DNA from: a virus
Taxonomy: Duplodnaviria > Heunggongvirae > Uroviricota > Caudoviricetes
Reading direction: 5' to 3' (one strand)
IMG/VR virus record: IMGVR_UViG_3300017917_002605
Coordinates: 1-46,470 of that record
Length of the DNA stretch: 46,470 nt
Shown here: positions 100 through 42,652 of the stretch, piece after piece
Numbering within the stretch: position 1 is the first letter of the stretch
Layout: the number at the start of each line of letters is the position of its first letter
Notes under the pieces: generated by a model
The model's database searches: none
Told to the model about the DNA's origin: nothing
What the model saw: only the letters and a program-made list of their open reading frames with translations
Translations under genes and position numbers: made by a program

Positions 100-1558
100 C
101 ATTAATCTGTATAAGGTAGATGAAGCATTCATCAAAGTAGAATGTGAAAGAGGATTCGCACAAGAACTCAGCGACTTCTTCACATTCTTCGTACCTGGCT
201 TTCAATTTACTCCAGCATTTAAGAACCGTTTATGGGACGGTAAAATAAGACTGTTTGACCTACGAAACAACCTAATGTATCGTGGGTTAATCCCATACAT
301 CCAAAAATTTTGTGATGAACGTGATTACAGTTTATCAGTTGAACCATCATTACAGCTTACTAAAAACTTCTCAGTCAAAGAGGCATTAGAGTTTGCAAAC
401 ACTTTAAATTTGCCATTTGAACCAAGAGACTATCAAATTAATTCGTTTGTTCATGCAGTACGTAACAGACGATTACTGCTTCTCTCACCTACCGCATCTG
501 GTAAATCTTTCATTATCTACCTGATACTGCGTTATCTACAACACACAGGTAAGAAAAAAGGTTTGTTGATTGTTCCAACCACATCATTGGTTGAACAGAT
601 GTATTCTGATTTCAAATCTTACGGATATGATTCAGAAACACATTGTCACCGACAGTATGCAGGTAAAGAGAAGACTACCGATAAACTCTTAACAATCACC
701 ACTTGGCAATCAATCTATAATTTGCCACAAGAATACTTTGAACAATTTGATTTTGTTCTAGGTGATGAAGCGCACCAATTCAAAGCAAAGTCTTTGACAA
801 CCATTATGACTGGTCTAAGAAACGCATCGTATAGAATTGGTTGTACAGGTACTTTAGACGGAACTCAAACTCACCGTTTGGTACTTGAAGGTTTGTTTGG
901 TGCAGTCTATAAGGCAACCACAACAAAAGAACTTATCGATAGTCAACAACTTGCCGATTTTAAAATCAAATGTTTGATTCTGAAATATCCGGAAGCAACC
1001 TGCAAACTAGCCAAAGATTGGGACTACAATGCAGAGATGGACTACATAGTAGGAAACACAGCAAGAAATCAGTTCATCAAGAATCTTGCTCTGTCACTTG
1101 AAGGAAATTCTCTGATTCTGTTCCAGTTTGTTGAAAAGCATGGCAGAGAACTCTATAGAATTATTAATGATGAAAAGAAAAAACGCAAAATATTCTTTGT
1201 GTTTGGAGGGACAGACGTAGATGTTAGAGAATCCGTTCGTGCAATTACTGAGAAGGAATCTGATGCCATTATTATTGCTAGTTATGGCACTTTCTCAACT
1301 GGTATTAATATACGTAATCTACACAATGTCATCTTTGCTAGTCCAAGTAAGTCTCGCATTCGCAATTTGCAGTCAATCGGCCGTGGTTTACGAAAAGGAA
1401 ACAACAAAACAGAAGCCGTTCTATTCGACATTGCTGATGATTTCCGACAAGGCAAATTTACCAACTACACATTGAAGCATTTCATCGAACGTGTTAAAAT
1501 TTATGACGAAGAAAAATTCGAATATAAGTTTTACAATATAGAGTTGAAAAATGGATAA
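92..1558 (+). CDS. uvsW: UvsW SF2 DNA helicase
   Basis: PRDYQ Q-motif, SPTASGKS Walker A, DEAH, TGT, SIGRGLR motif VI; T4-like synteny. Confidence 0.95.
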   Translation: MSDINLYKVDEAFIKVECERGFAQELSDFFTFFVPGFQFTPAFKNRLWDGKIRLFDLRNNLMYRGLIPYIQKFCDERDYSLSVEPSLQLTKNFSVKEALEFANTLNLPFEPRDYQINSFVHAVRNRRLLLLSPTASGKSFIIYLILRYLQHTGKKKGLLIVPTTSLVEQMYSDFKSYGYDSETHCHRQYAGKEKTTDKLLTITTWQSIYNLPQEYFEQFDFVLGDEAHQFKAKSLTTIMTGLRNASYRIGCTGTLDGTQTHRLVLEGLFGAVYKATTTKELIDSQQLADFKIKCLILKYPEATCKLAKDWDYNAEMDYIVGNTARNQFIKNLALSLEGNSLILFQFVEKHGRELYRIINDEKKKRKIFFVFGGTDVDVRESVRAITEKESDAIIIASYGTFSTGINIRNLHNVIFASPSKSRIRNLQSIGRGLRKGNNKTEAVLFDIADDFRQGKFTNYTLKHFIERVKIYDEEKFEYKFYNIELKNG

Positions 1559-33635: not shown

Positions 33636-34505
33636 ATGAAAGATATTGTGGTAGGGTGTATTACCAATTACACCTTTGATAAGATTGCCCCTTGGGTAAA
33701 TTCTCTTGAGCGAAGTGGTTTCGATGGCCTCAAGGTAATGATTTGTTACAACATTGGTTATGATGTTGTAGAAGAACTCACCAAACGTGGTTTCACCATT
33801 TTTGGTTTCAAACGAAACGATGAACAGAAACGCCTTGAATACAAGGACAATTTCAACATCTGTTTAGACCGTTTTTCCCATATTGCCTATTTCTTCAATC
33901 GTTTGGAGAACAAAGAGCAATATCGTTATGTGATTTCAACTGATGTTAAAGATGTAATTTTTCAAACCAATCCTTCTAGGTGGTTGGAAGAAAACATTGG
34001 TGATAAGAAGATTAATGTTGCTTCAGAATCATTGAGATATGTCGATGAAGACTGGGGTAATCACAATCTTTATCAATCTTTTGGACCTTTAATTTATGAA
34101 CGAAACAAAGACAACACCATTTACAATGCCGGCACTATCGCAGGAGAGTTTCAACATTTTGTGGACCTCTGTGATAACATCTTTCTTGCTTGCGGAGGAG
34201 CTCCGCAAAATGTACCAGGTGGCGGTGGACCAGACCAAGCAGCACTTAACGTTCTATTGAATCTGAGTGCATACAGAAACATAACCAACTTTGCACCAAG
34301 TGAATCTGGTTATGCAGCACAATTGGGTACAACTGCTGACCCAAATAAGATTACACAATTCAGACCAAAGTTATTGGAACCTGAACCAATTATTGATTAT
34401 GGAACCGGTGAAGTCAAAACCTCCACAGGAAAACTATTCAGTATTGTTCACCAATACGACCGAGTACCAAAACTAAAAGAAGTCATTGAGAAGAAATTCG
34501 CATGA
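33636..34505 (+). CDS. GT-A glycosyltransferase (PLOD-GT-like)
   Basis: ISTDVKDVIFQ (DxxD), NAGTIAG, DQAALN, HQYDR. Confidence 0.7.
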   Translation: MKDIVVGCITNYTFDKIAPWVNSLERSGFDGLKVMICYNIGYDVVEELTKRGFTIFGFKRNDEQKRLEYKDNFNICLDRFSHIAYFFNRLENKEQYRYVISTDVKDVIFQTNPSRWLEENIGDKKINVASESLRYVDEDWGNHNLYQSFGPLIYERNKDNTIYNAGTIAGEFQHFVDLCDNIFLACGGAPQNVPGGGGPDQAALNVLLNLSAYRNITNFAPSESGYAAQLGTTADPNKITQFRPKLLEPEPIIDYGTGEVKTSTGKLFSIVHQYDRVPKLKEVIEKKFA

Positions 34506-35122
34506 ACTTCAGTTTCGGTATAACAACCGATTATTCTGACCTGAATCGGTTGAATGAAATTAAAGAATCTATTCGTGGTTTGCAAATACCGAATTACGAG
34601 ATTCTAATAATTGGCGGCCAACATCCCGAAGATGAGGATGATACATGCCACATCTTCTTTGATGAGGCTGCCAAACCAAATTGGGTTACACGTAAAAAGA
34701 ATACATTGGCACAGGCCGCCAAGTATGATAACGTTGTTATCTTCCACGACTATTACGTGTTCGACAAAGACTGGTATCAAAACTTTCTAACATTCGGTGA
34801 AGATTGGGACGTTTGTTCTAATGCTCAACGGTTAATTACCGATAAGAGACATTTCACCGATTGGGTTTGTTGGGATTCACCAATCTTCCCACGTTATACA
34901 TCATTACATTATGATGACTGGTCACATACTAAGTATATGTATCAATCTGGTGGTTACATGATTGTCAAAAAGAAATTCATGGAGAAATGTCCAATGAATG
35001 AAGAAATGACATGGGGTACCGCCGAAGATGTTGAGTGGTCTTTGAGAATGAGAGAGATTGCCAACTGGAAATGTAATGGTAAATCTATAGTGAAACATAA
35101 TAAAAGGCATCGTGATGCATAA
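34502..35122 (+). CDS. GT2-like glycosyltransferase
   Basis: YEILIIG, RKKNTLAQAAKYDNVVIFHD, GTAEDVEWS. Confidence 0.7.
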   Translation: MNFSFGITTDYSDLNRLNEIKESIRGLQIPNYEILIIGGQHPEDEDDTCHIFFDEAAKPNWVTRKKNTLAQAAKYDNVVIFHDYYVFDKDWYQNFLTFGEDWDVCSNAQRLITDKRHFTDWVCWDSPIFPRYTSLHYDDWSHTKYMYQSGGYMIVKKKFMEKCPMNEEMTWGTAEDVEWSLRMREIANWKCNGKSIVKHNKRHRDA

Positions 35123-36485
35123 GTTAATTATTTTTGACCTTGATGGTGTGTTGATTGAATCCCGTGAGTTGCATTATCATTCGCTGAATGAAGCACTCGC
35201 TAGAATTGATATGAAGTATGTCATATCACGTGAAGAACACCTTTCATTGTATGATGGTCTGAACACCACAAAGAAATTAGAAATGTTGGCGCAGAAAAAA
35301 GGTCTGCCCAATTCCTACTTCAATCAGATTTGGCAAGACAAACAAACTGCCACATTCAAACTGATTAGACAGATTCCAAAAAACAATAACCTGAGGCAAA
35401 TGTTTGCAAACATTCAATCAAAAGGTTGGAAGATTGCAGTTGCCAGTAACTCCATTCGTGAAACGGTAAAGTTGGCATTATTGTCGATTGGTGTCATGGA
35501 ATATGTTGATTACTATGTCAGTAATGAGGATGTAAAGAGAACCAAACCTTACCCCGAAATGTACTGGCAATGTATGACGGCATTAAATGCACTTCCAAAA
35601 AGTACAATTATCGTGGAAGATAGTCATATTGGACGCCAAGGTGCAACCGATTCTGGCGCACATCTTTTGCCTGTCGAAAACGCAAATGACTTGACTTCAT
35701 ATAAAGTTTTGTGTAAAATACAAGAGATTGAAGAAAAAGAACACCACCATCATATACCATGGAGAGATAATAAATTGAACGTACTTATTCCTATGGCAGG
35801 TGCTGGCTCACGTTTTGCACAAGCCGGTTACACCTTCCCTAAACCCCTGATTGAAGTCAGAGGCAAACCTATGATTCAGGTAGTTGTAGAGAACCTGAAC
35901 ATTCAGGCAAATTATATTTTCTTGGTTCAAAAAGAACACTATGAGAAATACAACCTGAAATATCTACTTAATCTGATTGCACCAAACTGTAAGATTGTAC
36001 AGGTTGATGGTGTGACAGAAGGTGCTGCTTGCACCACATTGTTGGCAAAAGAATTGATTGACAACGACCAACCATTGGTTATGGCAAACTCTGACCAGTT
36101 TATCGAATGGGATTCCAACAATGTCATGTATTCGTTCCAAGCGGATGGTATTGACGGTGGCATTCTAACATTTAAAGCAACACATCCAAAGTGGTCGTAT
36201 GCCAAGTTAGATGAAAACGGTTTCGTCAGTGAAGTTGCAGAAAAGAAACCAATCTCCGATAATGCGACCGTTGGTGTTTATTACTGGAAGAAAGGTTCTG
36301 ATTACGTTAAGTATGCAGAACAAATGATTGAAAAGAACATTCGTGTAAACAACGAATTCTATGTTTGTCCTGTTTTCAACGAAGCGATTGCTGATGGCAA
36401 GAAAATTCGTGTGAAACAAATTGAGAGAATGTGGGGCATTGGTACTCCAGAAGACCTCAACTATTTCTTGGAGAACCACAAATGA
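35112..36485 (+). CDS. HAD phosphatase fused to sugar/polyol-phosphate nucleotidyltransferase
   Basis: N-terminal FDLDGVL, SNS, KPYP, EDS..G; C-terminal IPMAGAGSRF...PKPLI, NSDQ, VAEKKPIS, GTPEDL. Confidence 0.88.
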   Translation: MMHKLIIFDLDGVLIESRELHYHSLNEALARIDMKYVISREEHLSLYDGLNTTKKLEMLAQKKGLPNSYFNQIWQDKQTATFKLIRQIPKNNNLRQMFANIQSKGWKIAVASNSIRETVKLALLSIGVMEYVDYYVSNEDVKRTKPYPEMYWQCMTALNALPKSTIIVEDSHIGRQGATDSGAHLLPVENANDLTSYKVLCKIQEIEEKEHHHHIPWRDNKLNVLIPMAGAGSRFAQAGYTFPKPLIEVRGKPMIQVVVENLNIQANYIFLVQKEHYEKYNLKYLLNLIAPNCKIVQVDGVTEGAACTTLLAKELIDNDQPLVMANSDQFIEWDSNNVMYSFQADGIDGGILTFKATHPKWSYAKLDENGFVSEVAEKKPISDNATVGVYYWKKGSDYVKYAEQMIEKNIRVNNEFYVCPVFNEAIADGKKIRVKQIERMWGIGTPEDLNYFLENHK

Positions 36486-37255
36486 ATAACAATATGACAG
36501 AAGAAAAGATTCAACAATATGCCGCAATGGCCAAGGCATTTATGAATCGACCAATTGGCCATCCTAACAACGTAGTAGGCAACTACGGATGGCATGAAAA
36601 ATATCCTTATGAAAAATACCTTCTTACTAGACCTTCTGATGAAAGTAAAACCGTGGTTCCAACCAATCAGTCTTTACTTGCTGTTGATTTTGGTTGTGGG
36701 CCTGGCCGCATGGTCAATCGTATGTCTAAGCTCTTCAAACGAGTTGATGGCATTGACGTATCCTCCTATGCGTTAGAATGGGCTCGCAAACAATTTCCAG
36801 AAAACAATTTCTATGAAGCCAGTGGTGCAGATTGTGGTGATGTTCCTGCAAACACTTATGATTTTGTTTACAACACTATTTCAATTCAACACATTCCCTG
36901 TCGTACTATTCGACAAAGAATTTATGAAGGACTATATCGTTGCATGAAAAAAGGTGCATCAATCACCTTGCAACTGGCATATAATCCAACATATGTTGCT
37001 GGTGTTTGGTCAAATGATACCGAACATGCATCATATGAATCCGACTTCTTTGATACCGACAAAACTAACGGTCATGCTGATTGTGTAATTAATGAAAAAG
37101 ATTTGCCTTTGCTGCAATCAGATTTTGAAAAAGTAGGTTTCAAAAATGTAGAGATTCGATTAGCTGAAGTTGCTAGTTTATATCCGAACCTAGAAGGTGA
37201 ATATCACGCACCTTATTGGGCTTCTCATTGGTTGTTTATTTACGGAAACAAATAA
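36482..37255 (+). CDS. Class I SAM-dependent methyltransferase
   Basis: VDFGCGPGR, GIDVS, YDFVY...ISIQHI; ATG at 36482 overlaps the previous stop. Confidence 0.85.
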   Translation: MNNNMTEEKIQQYAAMAKAFMNRPIGHPNNVVGNYGWHEKYPYEKYLLTRPSDESKTVVPTNQSLLAVDFGCGPGRMVNRMSKLFKRVDGIDVSSYALEWARKQFPENNFYEASGADCGDVPANTYDFVYNTISIQHIPCRTIRQRIYEGLYRCMKKGASITLQLAYNPTYVAGVWSNDTEHASYESDFFDTDKTNGHADCVINEKDLPLLQSDFEKVGFKNVEIRLAEVASLYPNLEGEYHAPYWASHWLFIYGNK

Positions 37256-37256
37256 C

Positions 37257-38039
37257 ATGCAAGTATGGATTTTGACGTTTAATCGTCCTGTTGTATTGAA
37301 CAGACAGATTAAAACATTTGGTGAACTTGGTTATGATGTTCATATCTTTTCCAATTATCCTGAAGTAGAAATTTACGCAGAGAATAAAGATTACATCAAA
37401 GAAGTATTCTTTAATAACCTATCTGACCCTGAGGCAAATTCTTATTGTGCTAGGTCATGGAACAATATCTTCATCAAATGTTTCAAGACCGAACAAGAGG
37501 CAATCTTTGTACAGGATGATACATGGTGCAGACCAGAGATTGGTAAACTAATCGAGGAAAACAAAGATAAGTTTGACCTGATTTGGGGACCTGCTGGCGA
37601 TACATTCTTCTACATGAAGAAAAGTGTTCTTGCAACCATTGGTTGGTTTGATGAGCGTTATCTTGCTTGTTATTGTGGTGATGCTGACTTCCTGAAACGT
37701 GCATGGCATTTTTATGATAAAGATAGATTGTCTATTGCTGAGACACACGATTGGGGATGGTTTCATAATGATGTAGGAATTCGTAATCATATTTCTTGGG
37801 ATTTACGTTCTAAATGTTTAGATGATAATTATGTAAATCAACATCAAGAAAATGAAGCCAAAATTGGTTCCTCAAACTACATGTTAGTACACTCACAAGG
37901 ACACTTTAAGAATAAATGGGCCACACCAGGTAATGGTATTAACGGTATTGGTCCTATTTGTTTATATGAAGAAGCACCACAGGTTGCAGAAATTGATTGG
38001 TATCCTTGGTTTACTAAAAAATATTTGAGAGGTGAATGA
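37257..38039 (+). CDS. GT2-family glycosyltransferase
   Basis: ILTFNRP, ARSWN, FVQDD, GWFDERY...GDADF. Confidence 0.75.
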   Translation: MQVWILTFNRPVVLNRQIKTFGELGYDVHIFSNYPEVEIYAENKDYIKEVFFNNLSDPEANSYCARSWNNIFIKCFKTEQEAIFVQDDTWCRPEIGKLIEENKDKFDLIWGPAGDTFFYMKKSVLATIGWFDERYLACYCGDADFLKRAWHFYDKDRLSIAETHDWGWFHNDVGIRNHISWDLRSKCLDDNYVNQHQENEAKIGSSNYMLVHSQGHFKNKWATPGNGINGIGPICLYEEAPQVAEIDWYPWFTKKYLRGE

Positions 38040-38500
38040 TGCGTATTATCGCACATAGGGGATTAATCAACGGTGCCGATAAGGCATTTGAGAATAGACC
38101 AGAAACTATCGAACTTGCATTTGATAATGATTTTGATGCAGAGATTGATATCTGGCGTGAAGATGGTGAATGGTTTCTAGGACATGATGAGCCACAATAT
38201 CCAGTAGATTCTGCTTGGATTATGTCGGCAGCACCACGAGCTTGGTTTCATTGTAAGAACTCAGAAGCAATGTTGTGGATGGCCAATCATTCCAAAGGTG
38301 TTAATTTCTTTTGGCACGATAGTGATGACTATACCCTCACCAGTACCGGATATGTGTGGGCATATCCAGGTTCTAAAGTTGAAGGCAATACGATTTTAGT
38401 TTTGCCAGAACGTATTATGAAAATTGAAGAAATTAAAAACATTCACTGTTATGGTGTTTGTACAGACTTTGCTATGCAAGCCAGAGAGGCACTTAAATGA
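38036..38500 (+). CDS. Glycerophosphodiester phosphodiesterase-like protein
   Basis: IIAHRG, EIDIW, GHD, HCKN, GVCTD. Confidence 0.75.
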   Translation: MMRIIAHRGLINGADKAFENRPETIELAFDNDFDAEIDIWREDGEWFLGHDEPQYPVDSAWIMSAAPRAWFHCKNSEAMLWMANHSKGVNFFWHDSDDYTLTSTGYVWAYPGSKVEGNTILVLPERIMKIEEIKNIHCYGVCTDFAMQAREALK

Positions 38501-39459
38501 AAATTTGTTTTGTTGTTCACCGATATGCACCATTTCCTGGTGGTTCTGAATACTATGTCCAACAGATGGCGGAAGAATGTGTTCAGAGACACCATGATGT
38601 AACTGTTATTGCTGGTGAACACAAAGGTGATTTGAATGGTGTTCGTGTAACAAGTGACGCACATTATTTGAATGACCAAGATTTGGTTGTAGTTCACGGC
38701 GGTGATGTTGGCGTACAGAACTTTGTTTTGTCACATGCAAGACATATAAACTCACCTGTCTTGTATATGATTATCAAACCGTCCGATAGTCAAGTATGCG
38801 TTCAGGCATTACATGACTGTGAATTCATTGGTTGTTCCGCACCCGAGGATTGGGACCATGTACGTAAACATGGCGTGGAAAATAAGGCACATAAAGTAAT
38901 TCACGGTATTTCTCCTGTTGATTGTATCGGCAAAAAAGGCAGATTCAAACACCAGTACGGTATTCCTGCCGACAAACGCATGTTTCTATCTTGCGGTGGG
39001 TATTGGCCGAACAAAAAGATGATTGAACTTGCCAAGGCATTTGAGTCCGCAAACCTAGAGGACAGTATCTTAGTCACAACTGGTTACGATAATCGATTCG
39101 GTATCATGCCTCATGCGTCCGAGAAGGTCTTTCCTTTGATGGTCGATGACCCTAAGGATGTCAAGGATGCGATTGCCGATGCCGATTGTTATGTGATGAA
39201 CTCGGATGCCGAAGGTTTTGGTCTGGTAATCCTAGAATCTATGATTAACAAGACACCTTGGATTTCTCGAAATATCGCTGGTGCCAAACTTTTGGCTGAA
39301 CATGGCCAAGTGTACAATACAGAAGATGAATTGGTTGAATTATTGCGTGGTTTCAAAAGAAACGACACCAAAGTTAAAACTGCTTACGAATACGTAATTC
39401 AGAACCACCTAATCAAGAACACGGTCGATGATATTCTAGCTCTAATAAATACTAAATAA
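38497..39459 (+). CDS. GT4-family (GT-B) glycosyltransferase
   Basis: PFPGGSE, PNKKMIELAKAF, SDAEGFGLVILESM. Confidence 0.85.
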   Translation: MKICFVVHRYAPFPGGSEYYVQQMAEECVQRHHDVTVIAGEHKGDLNGVRVTSDAHYLNDQDLVVVHGGDVGVQNFVLSHARHINSPVLYMIIKPSDSQVCVQALHDCEFIGCSAPEDWDHVRKHGVENKAHKVIHGISPVDCIGKKGRFKHQYGIPADKRMFLSCGGYWPNKKMIELAKAFESANLEDSILVTTGYDNRFGIMPHASEKVFPLMVDDPKDVKDAIADADCYVMNSDAEGFGLVILESMINKTPWISRNIAGAKLLAEHGQVYNTEDELVELLRGFKRNDTKVKTAYEYVIQNHLIKNTVDDILALINTK

Positions 39460-39491: not shown

Positions 39492-41924
39492 ATGAAATTT
39501 AGAGATTTTATTAGAGAAGAAAAGGAAAAGCATGCCGTCCTGGCTTTCGGACGCATGAATCCACCAACAACAGGACATGAGGTCCTGGTCAATAAAGTCA
39601 AAGAGGTAGCAAGACAAAACAACGCATCACACCATGTTGTGCTATCTCACTCACAAGACAAAGCAAAGAATCCTCTAACACCCTCACAAAAGGCATTACA
39701 TGCCAGACGATTCTTTCCTGGTACCAATATCACATTGGCTACCAAAGAACATCCAAACTTTCTAACTCAGGCACAAAAGTTACATCAAAAAGGTGTAACT
39801 CATTTACACATGGTTGCTGGTTCTGACCGTGTTCCTGAGTATGATAAACTGTTAAAGAAATACAACGGCACACATGAAGGTGCCTTGTTTAATTTCAAAT
39901 CAATCAAAGTACATAATGCAGGCGAACGTGACCCTGATGCCGATGACACAAGTGGCATGTCTGCATCAAAAATGCGTGGTCATGCGGCTGCATCCAACTT
40001 TAAAGAATTCAAAAAAGGTATTCCTTCTCACGTACCGGAACATCATGCAAGAGAATTGTATGACCATGTTCGTAGAGGTATGGGTATTCGTGAAAACATG
40101 GATTTCACATTACCAATGGATGAAGAAGTTGCACAACTATTGTATGAAGGTGTGCATGATAAAGGTATCTTTAAGGCAGTATTCTTAGCAGGTGGTCCAG
40201 GTTCTGGCAAAGATTATGTATTGGACAACACACTTGCTGGTCATGGCTTGACAGAAATCAATTCCGACAAGGCACTAGAGTTTTTGATGGACAAACACGG
40301 TCTTGATAAGACCATGCCTCCTTCTGAACAAGAGAAACGTGATTACATTCGTGGTCGTGCAAAGAACATTACTGAATTGCGCCAGCGTTTGGCTCTACTA
40401 GGTCGTAATGGTCTTATCATCAATGGTACTGGTGATGATGTTGAAAAATATAAGAAGATTAAAGAACGACTAGAAGAAATCGGTTACGAAACTTCAATGG
40501 TTTCTGTTGTGACTGATGATGAAGTTTCTCGTCAGCGTAATATTGAACGTGGTCAACGTGGTGGTCGTTCAGTGCCTGAAGAAATTCGTAAAGCAAAATG
40601 GGATGCAGTTACCAAAGCACGTGCTGAAATGGCAAAGATGTTTGGTGATAACTATGTAGAGTTTGACAACTCACAAGATTTACGTACTGCTGACCCTGAA
40701 ACAGTCAAAGCCAAAAAAGATGAAATGCTTGGTATATTCAAGCGTGTTAAATCTTTTGTTGAAACACCACCATCTACCGAAAAGTCTCAGGCCTGGGTTG
40801 CACAAGAACTGAGTAAAAAAGACAATACGCTTGTTTCAGATGAAGATGCTGAAAAACATCCTCATCCAGATAATGAATCTTCTCAGCAAGCTCGCCAATT
40901 AGGTTTGACATATTATGGATTCGGCCGTTGGGGTAAAAACGGAGAGGTCACTCACCATTCCGTACATGGTCAACTGGTTGCAATACAAAAAGAAAAAATT
41001 AAAGATGTGAGTGTGCCTATCGATGGTTCATCACAGAAACCACCAGTTACCGTTAAGAAGGTAACAGCAAAGAACGCTACAATGAAAACAGAAAGCCTCG
41101 ACCATGAGTTTGAAAGTTTCTTAACTGAAGCAGTAACCATTACAGTTAAGGCTGACACAGCTGAAGAAGCTGCAAAAGCAGTCAAACTATTATCTAACGA
41201 ACCTGATGAACAAGAAGAAGTTGAAGAAGAAGTACAAGACGGTTTCTCTGATTTGACCGCCAAACAACTTCTAACTTTGAATCAAACATTCGGCGTTCAA
41301 GCAGAATCAAAAGACAACAAGAAACACATCTTCCCTTCCGAACATCTATTGAAAGATTCAAACGGTAAAGTGCGTGTGTTTATGATGCGCCGTGCTGCAG
41401 CAGCAGAAGCACACCAAAAAGGTGGCCAGGTGCAAAAATCAGGAAATGGTTATGTCGTTAAATTAAAGGAGGATACTCATGTTACAAGCGTTAATCAATC
41501 TGTTCAAGAGAAAACAACCACAAGTGCAGGAAGCACCGTACAAAGTGGAAGTGGAACAACCAGTTCAGGAAGTCTCATTACCGAAAGTAGAGACTCCGGT
41601 TGTGGTTGCGGCTGTGGAGGAGCAGAAGCCAGTTGCCAAGAAAAAGGCACCGGCAAAAAGAAAACCATCGCAGAAGTCAAAGCCAGTTGGTCAAAAGAAA
41701 AAGCAGTAAAAGAATCTATTGACAAAGGCATCGAACCAGGTCTTTCGATGGCAACTTCTGGTGAAAATTTGGTGCGTGGTGCAACAAAGAATAAACCAAA
41801 AGAAAAACCATTAGAAGAAATGCAGGGTGATGAAACCACCGCTTCAATTGGTGACCAAAAAGAAGATGAATTAAAGAAGAAAGGCATTAGTCTTTCATCA
41901 TTTAAAAAGAGAAATTACGTATGA
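39492..41924 (+). CDS. HxGH nucleotidyltransferase + Zeta/Pnk-like P-loop kinase fusion with a long modular tail
   Basis: FGRMNPPTTGH, AGSDR, SASKMR; GGPGSGKD, INSD, RNIERG..GGRSVP; N-terminus MKFRDFIREE; late boxes at 39444-39458. Confidence 0.8.
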   Translation: MKFRDFIREEKEKHAVLAFGRMNPPTTGHEVLVNKVKEVARQNNASHHVVLSHSQDKAKNPLTPSQKALHARRFFPGTNITLATKEHPNFLTQAQKLHQKGVTHLHMVAGSDRVPEYDKLLKKYNGTHEGALFNFKSIKVHNAGERDPDADDTSGMSASKMRGHAAASNFKEFKKGIPSHVPEHHARELYDHVRRGMGIRENMDFTLPMDEEVAQLLYEGVHDKGIFKAVFLAGGPGSGKDYVLDNTLAGHGLTEINSDKALEFLMDKHGLDKTMPPSEQEKRDYIRGRAKNITELRQRLALLGRNGLIINGTGDDVEKYKKIKERLEEIGYETSMVSVVTDDEVSRQRNIERGQRGGRSVPEEIRKAKWDAVTKARAEMAKMFGDNYVEFDNSQDLRTADPETVKAKKDEMLGIFKRVKSFVETPPSTEKSQAWVAQELSKKDNTLVSDEDAEKHPHPDNESSQQARQLGLTYYGFGRWGKNGEVTHHSVHGQLVAIQKEKIKDVSVPIDGSSQKPPVTVKKVTAKNATMKTESLDHEFESFLTEAVTITVKADTAEEAAKAVKLLSNEPDEQEEVEEEVQDGFSDLTAKQLLTLNQTFGVQAESKDNKKHIFPSEHLLKDSNGKVRVFMMRRAAAAEAHQKGGQVQKSGNGYVVKLKEDTHVTSVNQSVQEKTTTSAGSTVQSGSGTTSSGSLITESRDSGCGCGCGGAEASCQEKGTGKKKTIAEVKASWSKEKAVKESIDKGIEPGLSMATSGENLVRGATKNKPKEKPLEEMQGDETTASIGDQKEDELKKKGISLSSFKKRNYV
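41479..41709 (+). CDS. Nested +1-frame small Lys/Pro/Glu-rich protein
   Basis: AAGGAGG SD at 41466-41472, ATG 41479; MLQALINLFKRK...EAPYKVE...KKKAPAKRK. Confidence 0.65.
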   Translation: MLQALINLFKRKQPQVQEAPYKVEVEQPVQEVSLPKVETPVVVAAVEEQKPVAKKKAPAKRKPSQKSKPVGQKKKQ

Positions 41925-42652
41925 AATCATTTAAACAATTTGTAAACGAAGACCTGCGTAAATGGTTCGATAAAGACCATCCTGAAGGTGGTTGGAAAAG
42001 AATTAATAGTAAAGGTGAGGCAATCGGTCCTTGCGCCAGAGAACCTGGTGAGCCAAAACCTAAATGCATGTCTAACGAAAAACGTGCTCAGTTGAGTAAG
42101 AAAGAACGTGCATCAGCAGTCGCAGCAAAACGCAGACACGACCCAAATCCAGAGAGAAAAGGTGAACCCATTAATGTTTCCAATTATGGAAAAGGAAAGA
42201 TTAGTGAAGACCAAGAATATCTTGAAGAAAAGAACGTACCAACAAGTCCTGAAAAATGGGCAAGAGCAAAGGCAATGGCAAAGGCTAAATTCGATGTTTA
42301 TCCTTCTGCTTATGCAAATGGTTGGGCTGCAAAGAAATATAAAGAAATGGGCGGCGGTTGGAAATCTGTATCGGAAGAAGTTGAAAATGTCGAAGAAGAT
42401 TGGCAAAAGGTCAACAAGTCCGATAGAACAGATGGTATGTCACAAAAGGCAGTTGATGCCTATCGCCGTGAAAATCCAGGTTCAAAACTAAAGACCGCTG
42501 TTACAGAAAAGAATCCTACTGGTAAACGTGCATCACGTAGAAAATCATTCTGCGCTCGTATGTCAGGTATGAAACGTGCTCATGCAAGTCCAGAAACTAA
42601 GCGTGACCCAGATTCACCAATTAATAAAGCTCTACGCCGTTGGAGATGCTAA
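41921..42652 (+). CDS. Modular basic polyprotein, probable internal head protein (DUF5872-like and DUF6321-like modules)
   Basis: MKSFKQFVNE start; modules ...YPSAYANGWAAKKYKEMGGGW and ...RRKSFCARM...ALRRWRC separated by EE linkers. Confidence 0.65.
   Translation: MKSFKQFVNEDLRKWFDKDHPEGGWKRINSKGEAIGPCAREPGEPKPKCMSNEKRAQLSKKERASAVAAKRRHDPNPERKGEPINVSNYGKGKISEDQEYLEEKNVPTSPEKWARAKAMAKAKFDVYPSAYANGWAAKKYKEMGGGWKSVSEEVENVEEDWQKVNKSDRTDGMSQKAVDAYRRENPGSKLKTAVTEKNPTGKRASRRKSFCARMSGMKRAHASPETKRDPDSPINKALRRWRC

Follow-up and report, generated by a model that had tools for sequence, protein, structure and literature searches.

Genes embedded out of frame in larger genes are already established in tailed phages. 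In lambda, Rz1 is a small gene in the +1 frame of Rz that gene callers miss and whose product is proline-rich and disordered (PMC6139136), and in T4 the gene 30.3′ within 30.3 is annotated as "internal translation, in a different reading frame" (NC_000866). Here we describe a 76-codon gene nested in the +1 frame of a host open reading frame (ORF) of 810 amino acids (aa) in an uncultured phage, the virus record IMGVR_UViG_3300017917_002605. The window, by which we mean the whole stretch of DNA that was analysed, comprises the first 46,470 bases of this complete 168,911-bp record, which has terminal repeats, a T4-like gene content and a gp21-type prohead protease (PF03420, E 1.4e-34). T4 30.3′, with 75 aa, resembles the nested gene in being a same-strand, fully nested, out-of-frame gene of a T4-type phage; the nested peptide gave no BLASTP alignment to gp30.3′ at E≤100. 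Unlike in T4, however, the host gene here codes for a late enzyme fusion that is probably targeted to the capsid, and the overlapped span is a length-variable linker that some relatives do without. With Rz1 the nested gene shares the +1 frame within a larger gene and a proline-rich, disordered product, but it is not embedded in an i-spanin, and spanin genes appear to be present elsewhere in this phage. By these comparisons, the nested gene is homologous to neither. What is new is the nested family, its link to a free-standing late gene of jumbo phages and a map of how constraint passes from one frame to the other along the overlap. Since the gene-in-gene layout is known, the surprise is limited. 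No parallel to the nested gene was offered by the phiKZ lysis regulator (PMC12894885), and no description of the family was found in the literature searched, with most subscription journals outside its coverage.

The nested gene lies on the + strand at 41479-41709 (ATG at 41479, TAA at 41707-41709), beneath residues 663-740 of the host ORF (39492-41924, + strand). It is preceded on the same strand by the Shine-Dalgarno (SD) sequence AAGGAGG (41466-41472) with a 6-nt spacer to the ATG, written in host Lys-Glu-Asp codons with use of the disfavoured GAG. These coordinates agree with a preliminary description of the window, and the amphipathic start, the Glu/Pro/Val-rich middle, the basic tail and the Ser/Thr/Gly/Cys-rich host stretch that it reported are all present. 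Around the start lies an AT-rich trough in which folding is weak (about -1.5 kcal/mol per 40 nt, against -5 to -6 in the flanks), a dip that base content explains in part. The length of the ORF could by itself arise by chance: the 168.9-kb genome holds 75 nested same-strand ATG ORFs of at least 45 codons. Moreover, hydrophilic low-complexity linkers make few +1 stops, and by synonymous recoding of the window copy the +1 frame would be open from the host amino acids alone with P=0.047; the second gene could then be a mere by-product of such a linker. In the opposite direction, the host frame would be open given the nested amino acids with P=1.5e-4. Just one of the 75 nested ORFs, the one at 41479, is preceded by AAGGAGG, which occurs in seven copies genome-wide. 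The sole other + strand nested ORF with a five-base SD is an 84-codon ATG ORF at window positions 1221-1475, in the +1 frame within ORF 92-1558 and with GGAGG upstream.

Conservation across homologs decides the matter. Searches with the host C-terminus yielded 182 loci, which together with the window collapsed to 137 distinct regions; after one truncated region was dropped, 136 regions including the window remained. Left out of the counts were L181, which meets a contig end or a frameshift, and three contigs ending inside the gene. An SD-type motif and a +1 ATG are present in all 136 regions, with a spacing of 5-8 nt in 135, and the +1 frame is uninterrupted over 50-113 codons in 135. The single internal stop, a TAG at about codon 10 where the close relatives L153 and L156 have Lys, is found in L159, a single 1-kb contig in which it represents either an assembly error or a recent inactivation. 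The host frame is open and the host C-terminus conserved in all 136 regions. These copies are well diverged, with median pairwise identities of 27% (nested peptide) and 24% (host protein over the span), and form 30 clusters at 50%. The start triplet is carried by the host codons AAT (61), GAT (39), CAT (20) and TAT (16), that is by Asn, Asp, His or Tyr, and is followed by five different residues, so that the triplet is kept while host residues vary. Among the 30 cluster representatives, the Glu codons of the SD are GAG in 40 of 43 cases against 19% elsewhere. Host Ile, Leu and Val codons that would make a +1 stop are absent from the span (0/195, compared with 853/2106 outside), and none of 423 nested codons makes a host stop. 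Synonymous recoding of the host proteins would leave only about 14 of the 136 +1 frames open, whereas 135 are observed, and recoding of the nested peptides about 0.7 host frames. A linker by-product leaves the invariant ATG, the GAG-built SD and the collapse of third-position variation described below without explanation, and is effectively refuted. Nominal p-values are inflated by kinship among the sequences, while counts of one sequence per cluster agree in direction.

The same alignment speaks to a programmed +1 frameshift that would join the basic tail to the host enzyme, stimulated by the SD-like sequence. Elements of this type are able to promote +1 shifts from within a gene, RF2 being an example. 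However, an ATG follows the SD by 5-8 nt in almost all copies while the surrounding host codon varies, a +1 stop stands just before the SD in most copies, and no shift-prone site is conserved; a frameshift is thus very improbable. Dual coding, as proposed in the preliminary description, is strongly supported by the SD, ATG and open frame in 135-136 of 136 regions and by the avoidance of stops in both frames, and homologs with +1 stops or lacking SD and ATG, which would have spoken against it, are confined to the one internal stop in L159. On this comparative evidence the nested gene is almost certainly real, with both frames and the internal start under selection. Gene callers appear to miss it across the clade: seven nested peptides were all absent from a 15-billion-protein collection in which the host protein is present, although this exact-match look-up is a weak test.

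More than 130 diverged copies let selection be mapped along the overlap, which has a guest-only start, a shared middle and a host-led end. Among 85 closely related pairs, the host frame shows 0.208 third-position differences per codon upstream, 0.037 under nested codons 1-14, 0.105-0.109 beneath its middle and tail, and 0.209 downstream, and host first-position differences go up inside the span. Over nested codons 1-14, a dN/dS-like ratio comes to 0.33 in the +1 frame and 1.08 in the host frame. The corresponding values are 0.40 (+1) and 0.29 (host) for the middle of the overlap and 0.17 (+1) and 0.07 (host) for the last 20 nested codons, with host flanks at 0.11 and 0.05. The earlier proposal that the outer frame acts as a spacer thus applies to the first 14 codons, in part to the middle, and not to the last 20, where the host ratio of 0.07 is like that of the flanks. 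The in-frame lack of the whole span in some relatives speaks in its favour, but since the host ratio is 1.08 under the N-terminal helix of the guest and low elsewhere, the host is a pure spacer only there.

Changes silent in the +1 frame are favoured inside the span (160/100 versus 14/75 in the flanks, p=2.5e-14). This bears on the idea that the peptide is incidental to a translation device, in which ribosomes that start internally and stop close to the 3′ end of the host gene raise the load on the downstream late genes or shield the mRNA. The fast divergence of a peptide of 50-113 aa, whose start and stop positions are better kept than its sequence, would suit such a device. Yet the counts just given reveal selection on the +1 frame at the amino-acid level, the amphipathic pattern is kept, and the 212 nt between the nested stop and the next start exceed the reach of ordinary coupling; we regard this explanation as quite improbable.

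Under the nested tail, the host frame carries a conserved K-I-T-L-x-x-I-R/K motif in 115 of 136 regions (its window version lies at 41658-41681, + strand), and the +1 reading of this motif is the recurring K-S-P-S-x-K-S of the nested tail. The Ser/Lys-rich, "histone-like" tail is thus partly a shifted shadow of the host motif. A host-frame CGCGCG run was considered as a metal site and rejected: it is the shifted reading of nested V-V-A-A-V, and Cys motifs occur in 29 of 136 regions.

The host gene itself combines a capsid-targeting-like N-terminus, an HxGH nucleotidyltransferase, a Zeta-like P-loop kinase and Glu-jointed C-terminal modules, all on the + strand. Its cytidyltransferase/NMNAT-like domain spans residues 9-204 (39516-40103; PHROG 3041, E 5.7e-66) and its Zeta-toxin-like kinase domain residues 228-380 (40173-40631; Pfam PF06414, E 2.2e-12). 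Homolog comparison further delimited a conserved module AAxEAH...GYVVKLKE (41397-41471), which is coded in a single frame and adjoins the nested start upstream, and a conserved C-terminus SIDKG...KEDELKK (41712-41924) after the nested stop, whose conservation points to translation of the host frame across the whole overlap. Cultured phages matched the two enzyme domains only; the host C-terminus had no relatives among prokaryote genomes or GenBank phages, and the region is absent from GenBank phages. In Pelagibacter phage HTVC008M two pieces matching the host protein correspond to two annotated genes, and in many relatives of the host gene the kinase occurs without the HxGH domain.

The gp21 protease cleaves by the rule L/I-X-E (PMC9026906). 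Host N-termini have a cleavable Glu at positions 8-11 in 89 of 89 cases and a net charge near 0, and a candidate prohead-protease site, host-frame I-T-E, lies within the dual-coding span (41577-41585, + strand). [LI]TE is enriched in the host span, with 11 occurrences in the 30 cluster representatives compared with a shuffle mean of 3.2 and a maximum of 9 in 500 shuffles. The host enzyme is probably targeted to the head and cut after Glu, as these motifs suggest.

Two TAAATA boxes, of a sequence that we take from the T4 consensus to be the late box, precede the host gene (39445-39458, + strand) and are the likely promoter for both genes. Of 88 homologs, 83 have TAAATA ahead of the host start codon. 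We also rejected a promoter internal to the host gene that would serve the nested gene: TAAATA is not conserved within 150 nt (11 scattered occurrences in 136 regions), and sigma-70 sites occur at chance level. The nested gene is likely co-transcribed with its host as a late gene, to judge from the conserved box.

Several features of the neighbourhood were noted in passing. Directly 5′ of the host gene, window positions 33636-39459 hold a cluster of glycosyltransferase-, methyltransferase- and HAD/NTP-transferase-like genes, and similar clusters precede the host gene in L243, L244 and L246. A D-L-R-K-W-F...C-A-R-E-P-G-E-P-K-P-K-C module belongs to the next gene in the window (41921-42652) and lies inside the host ORF, upstream of the matching part, in L002, L003, L004 and L006; such Glu-jointed modules shuffle between adjacent late genes.

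Direct searches for stand-alone homologs of the peptide, suggested at the outset, yielded very little: two gave one weak match each, and these led to free-standing look-alikes. A motif scan for PEAPYKVE then returned 56 viral loci and, together with the two weak matches, 39 usable distinct genes among loci L183-L242, in which the motif is expected, as the scan selected for it. They belong to uncultured phages and encode proteins of 64-118 aa (one cut by a contig end) with the build of the nested peptide and PEAPYKVE after the helix. TAAATA precedes 36 of the 39 (background 2.5%), and with its presence before the host genes this indicates that nested and free-standing forms are probably both late products. 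Like the nested genes, they combine an amphipathic start, a Pro/Glu/Val middle, a Lys-rich tail and a late box, and the window peptide has EAPYKVE; unlike them, they have their own late promoter, tails of Ala/Lys/Pro instead of Ser/Lys/Pro, and genomes without the host fusion gene. The four near-complete genomes of this type that were tested are jumbo phages of 316-356 kb with a gp21-like protease and no host fusion gene, and no separate copy of the PEAPYKVE motif was found in the nested-type genomes tested.

Scored with a profile of the free-standing proteins, the window peptide reaches 27.9 bits (E 1e-7; shuffles at most 6.3) and is the only ORF product of its genome to match, and profile-profile comparison of nested and free-standing forms gave a probability of 90.8% over 17 columns. 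A profile of the other nested peptides scored 22 of 39 free-standing proteins above 10 bits versus 0 of 195 shuffles, and reciprocally the free-standing profile scored 23 of 134 nested peptides above 10 bits versus no shuffles, the signal being a short amphipathic helix, which can converge. Among the 136 nested copies PYKVE occurs in two, the window and L020; the helix together with APYKVE is found in the window copy and nearly so in L020. As the motif is limited to these two, descent, recent exchange and convergence on a binding motif are all possible. Two free-standing members, L229 (5569-5922) and L239 (6535-6888), have a long hydrophobic, transmembrane (TM)-like start in place of the amphipathic helix, L214:590-895 has a C-terminal Rho_N-like domain (E 0.0027, below the Pfam cut-off), and one member matches HC2 (E 0.021, 15.4 bits against a cut-off of 40). 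In L183, L193 (7456-7773) and L203 we observed an inserted Cys/His segment, C-G-C-G-R-S...C-V-G-L-H, without Pfam match and, as we presume, resembling a CDGSH iron-sulfur motif.

The nested peptide consists of an amphipathic helix (residues 2-10), a disordered Pro/Glu/Val/Gln middle with EAPYKVE and a Lys-rich tail. AlphaFold, run on a 57-sequence alignment, predicts the helix at 2-10 and coil elsewhere (pTM 0.18). Across representatives, the hydrophobic moment of the first 15 residues is 0.61 against 0.41 when shuffled, and the start, middle and tail carry net charges of +2.6, -0.9 and +8.0, respectively. A short Pro-centred motif (APYKVE, HPLD or FP) is conserved after the helix and may be a partner-binding site. 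No significant match to the peptide was found in GenBank phages and no named cluster in the ESM Atlas; the unnamed Atlas matches are without exception hypothetical proteins of viruses (0.90, low recognition), a weak lead only.

How the peptide acts can be proposed tentatively. One late mRNA from the TAAATA box before 39492 would be read in two frames: initiation at 39492 would yield the enzyme polyprotein of 810 aa, which the phage would probably package in its head and process with its gp21-like protease, and initiation at the internal SD a separate 76-aa protein. The basic amphipathic helix of the latter would insert into the cytoplasmic face of the inner membrane, while the Lys-rich tail on its disordered arm would bind phage DNA or another polyanion, so that the protein would serve as a non-essential membrane-to-DNA or membrane-to-prohead tether in particle assembly. 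T4 heads assemble on the inner membrane (PMC9026906). Membrane attachment is suggested by the helix, its hydrophobic moment, the charge of the start and the TM-like variants L229 and L239, and nucleic-acid binding by the tail charge and the Rho_N-like and HC2 matches. We consider this tether possible but short of probable, and several observations weigh against it. Both Pfam hints are weak, and the 57 nested members gave no significant match to Pfam or PHROG, HC2 included. In the nested copies, the host motif dictates part of the tail and the host frame leads selection over it, which weakens the idea that this tail evolved to bind DNA. Finally, transfer of function from the free-standing genes is uncertain, because the link amounts to about 17 aligned columns and a motif in two of 136 nested copies.

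The peptide may instead be a small basic internal head protein, packed via its N-terminal helix and neutralising DNA or injected like the internal proteins of T4. Like those proteins it is late, small and basic, and its Lys-rich low-complexity tail resembles those of histone H1-like and HC2 proteins. In addition, several genes in the host gene region have capsid-targeting-like starts, the free-standing genes in L187, L202 and L226 sit between such genes, the hydrophobic spacing of the N-terminal helix seems to resemble the capsid-targeting pattern, and a gp21-like protease is encoded in the genome. However, the capsid-targeting Glu at positions 8-11 occurs in 1 of 136 nested N-termini versus all 89 host N-termini, the nested start is charged (+2.5), no match to HC2 or T4 internal proteins exceeded the cut-off, and the free-standing members include TM-like variants. 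Packaging into the head is therefore somewhat unlikely.

A role as lysis accessory, weakening membranes or tuning holin timing, is suggested by the disruptin phiKT gp28, a cationic amphipathic membrane peptide of 56 aa (bioRxiv 10.1101/515445). The nested peptide is likewise late, small, cationic and amphipathic, and a lysis cassette starts about 5 kb downstream. This apparent cassette, just past the window at 46663-49018, has i-spanin-, lipoprotein o-spanin- and endolysin-like ORFs followed by small membrane proteins. Yet gp28, predicted to be amphipathic and helical, substitutes for spanins, whereas here an apparent i-spanin/o-spanin pair and an endolysin are present at 46.7-48.0 kb. Moreover, the nested peptide is a short helix with a long disordered arm, in which amphipathicity is confined to some 10 residues and an acidic, Pro-rich middle follows, and its gene lies outside the lysis cassette; we hold such a role to be unlikely. 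An o-spanin of the Rz1 type, with a signal peptide and lipobox Cys, was also considered and rejected, as the nested genes do not form a lipoprotein family: a Cys in the first 25 residues is found in 10 of 136 nested peptides and not in the window peptide, and the host is a nucleotidyltransferase-kinase.

Regarding the origin of the overlap, a profile search of the full library gave 120 relatives of the host. In the distant marine L246 and L247 the SD-led +1 ORF is present and the upstream module missing. The whole span is missing in-frame in L243 and L248, and in L244 it has been lost almost entirely, apart from an SD-like remnant. Guest gene and host span are thus dispensable together in some lineages. 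In L243:3985-5783 the host gene is also called as two genes, apparently owing to a frameshift. Span-less hosts are scattered on a quick tree (SH-aLRT only, midpoint root), and their placement in a single clade was rejected (p-AU 0.003), the group being defined by trait and tested after the first tree, with the long-branched P0099, P0084, P0109 and P0115 outside the clade test. With gains and losses ordered only provisionally on such a tree, repeated loss would be the simplest reading for span-less hosts inside the main clade, and the two near the midpoint root could ancestrally have been without the span. It is conceivable, if rather doubtful, that all these genes belong to one family of late membrane-anchor-plus-polycation proteins, encoded as ordinary genes in jumbo phages and, in the present T4-like clade, absorbed out of frame into a head-protein gene whose own motif grew later under the guest tail.

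Overall, the nested gene represents an added gene for a whole clade of abundant aquatic T4-like phages. The overlap, with its many copies and its span missing in several lineages, is suited to the study of how overlaps originate and how constraint is divided between frames. Furthermore, the free-standing members are easily cloned and open the function of an unstudied late phage family to laboratory test. If the common family proves true, it would provide a well-sampled overlap made by engulfing an existing gene and not by de novo overprinting, and would hint at a widespread but so far overlooked late function that connects phage DNA with the inner membrane.

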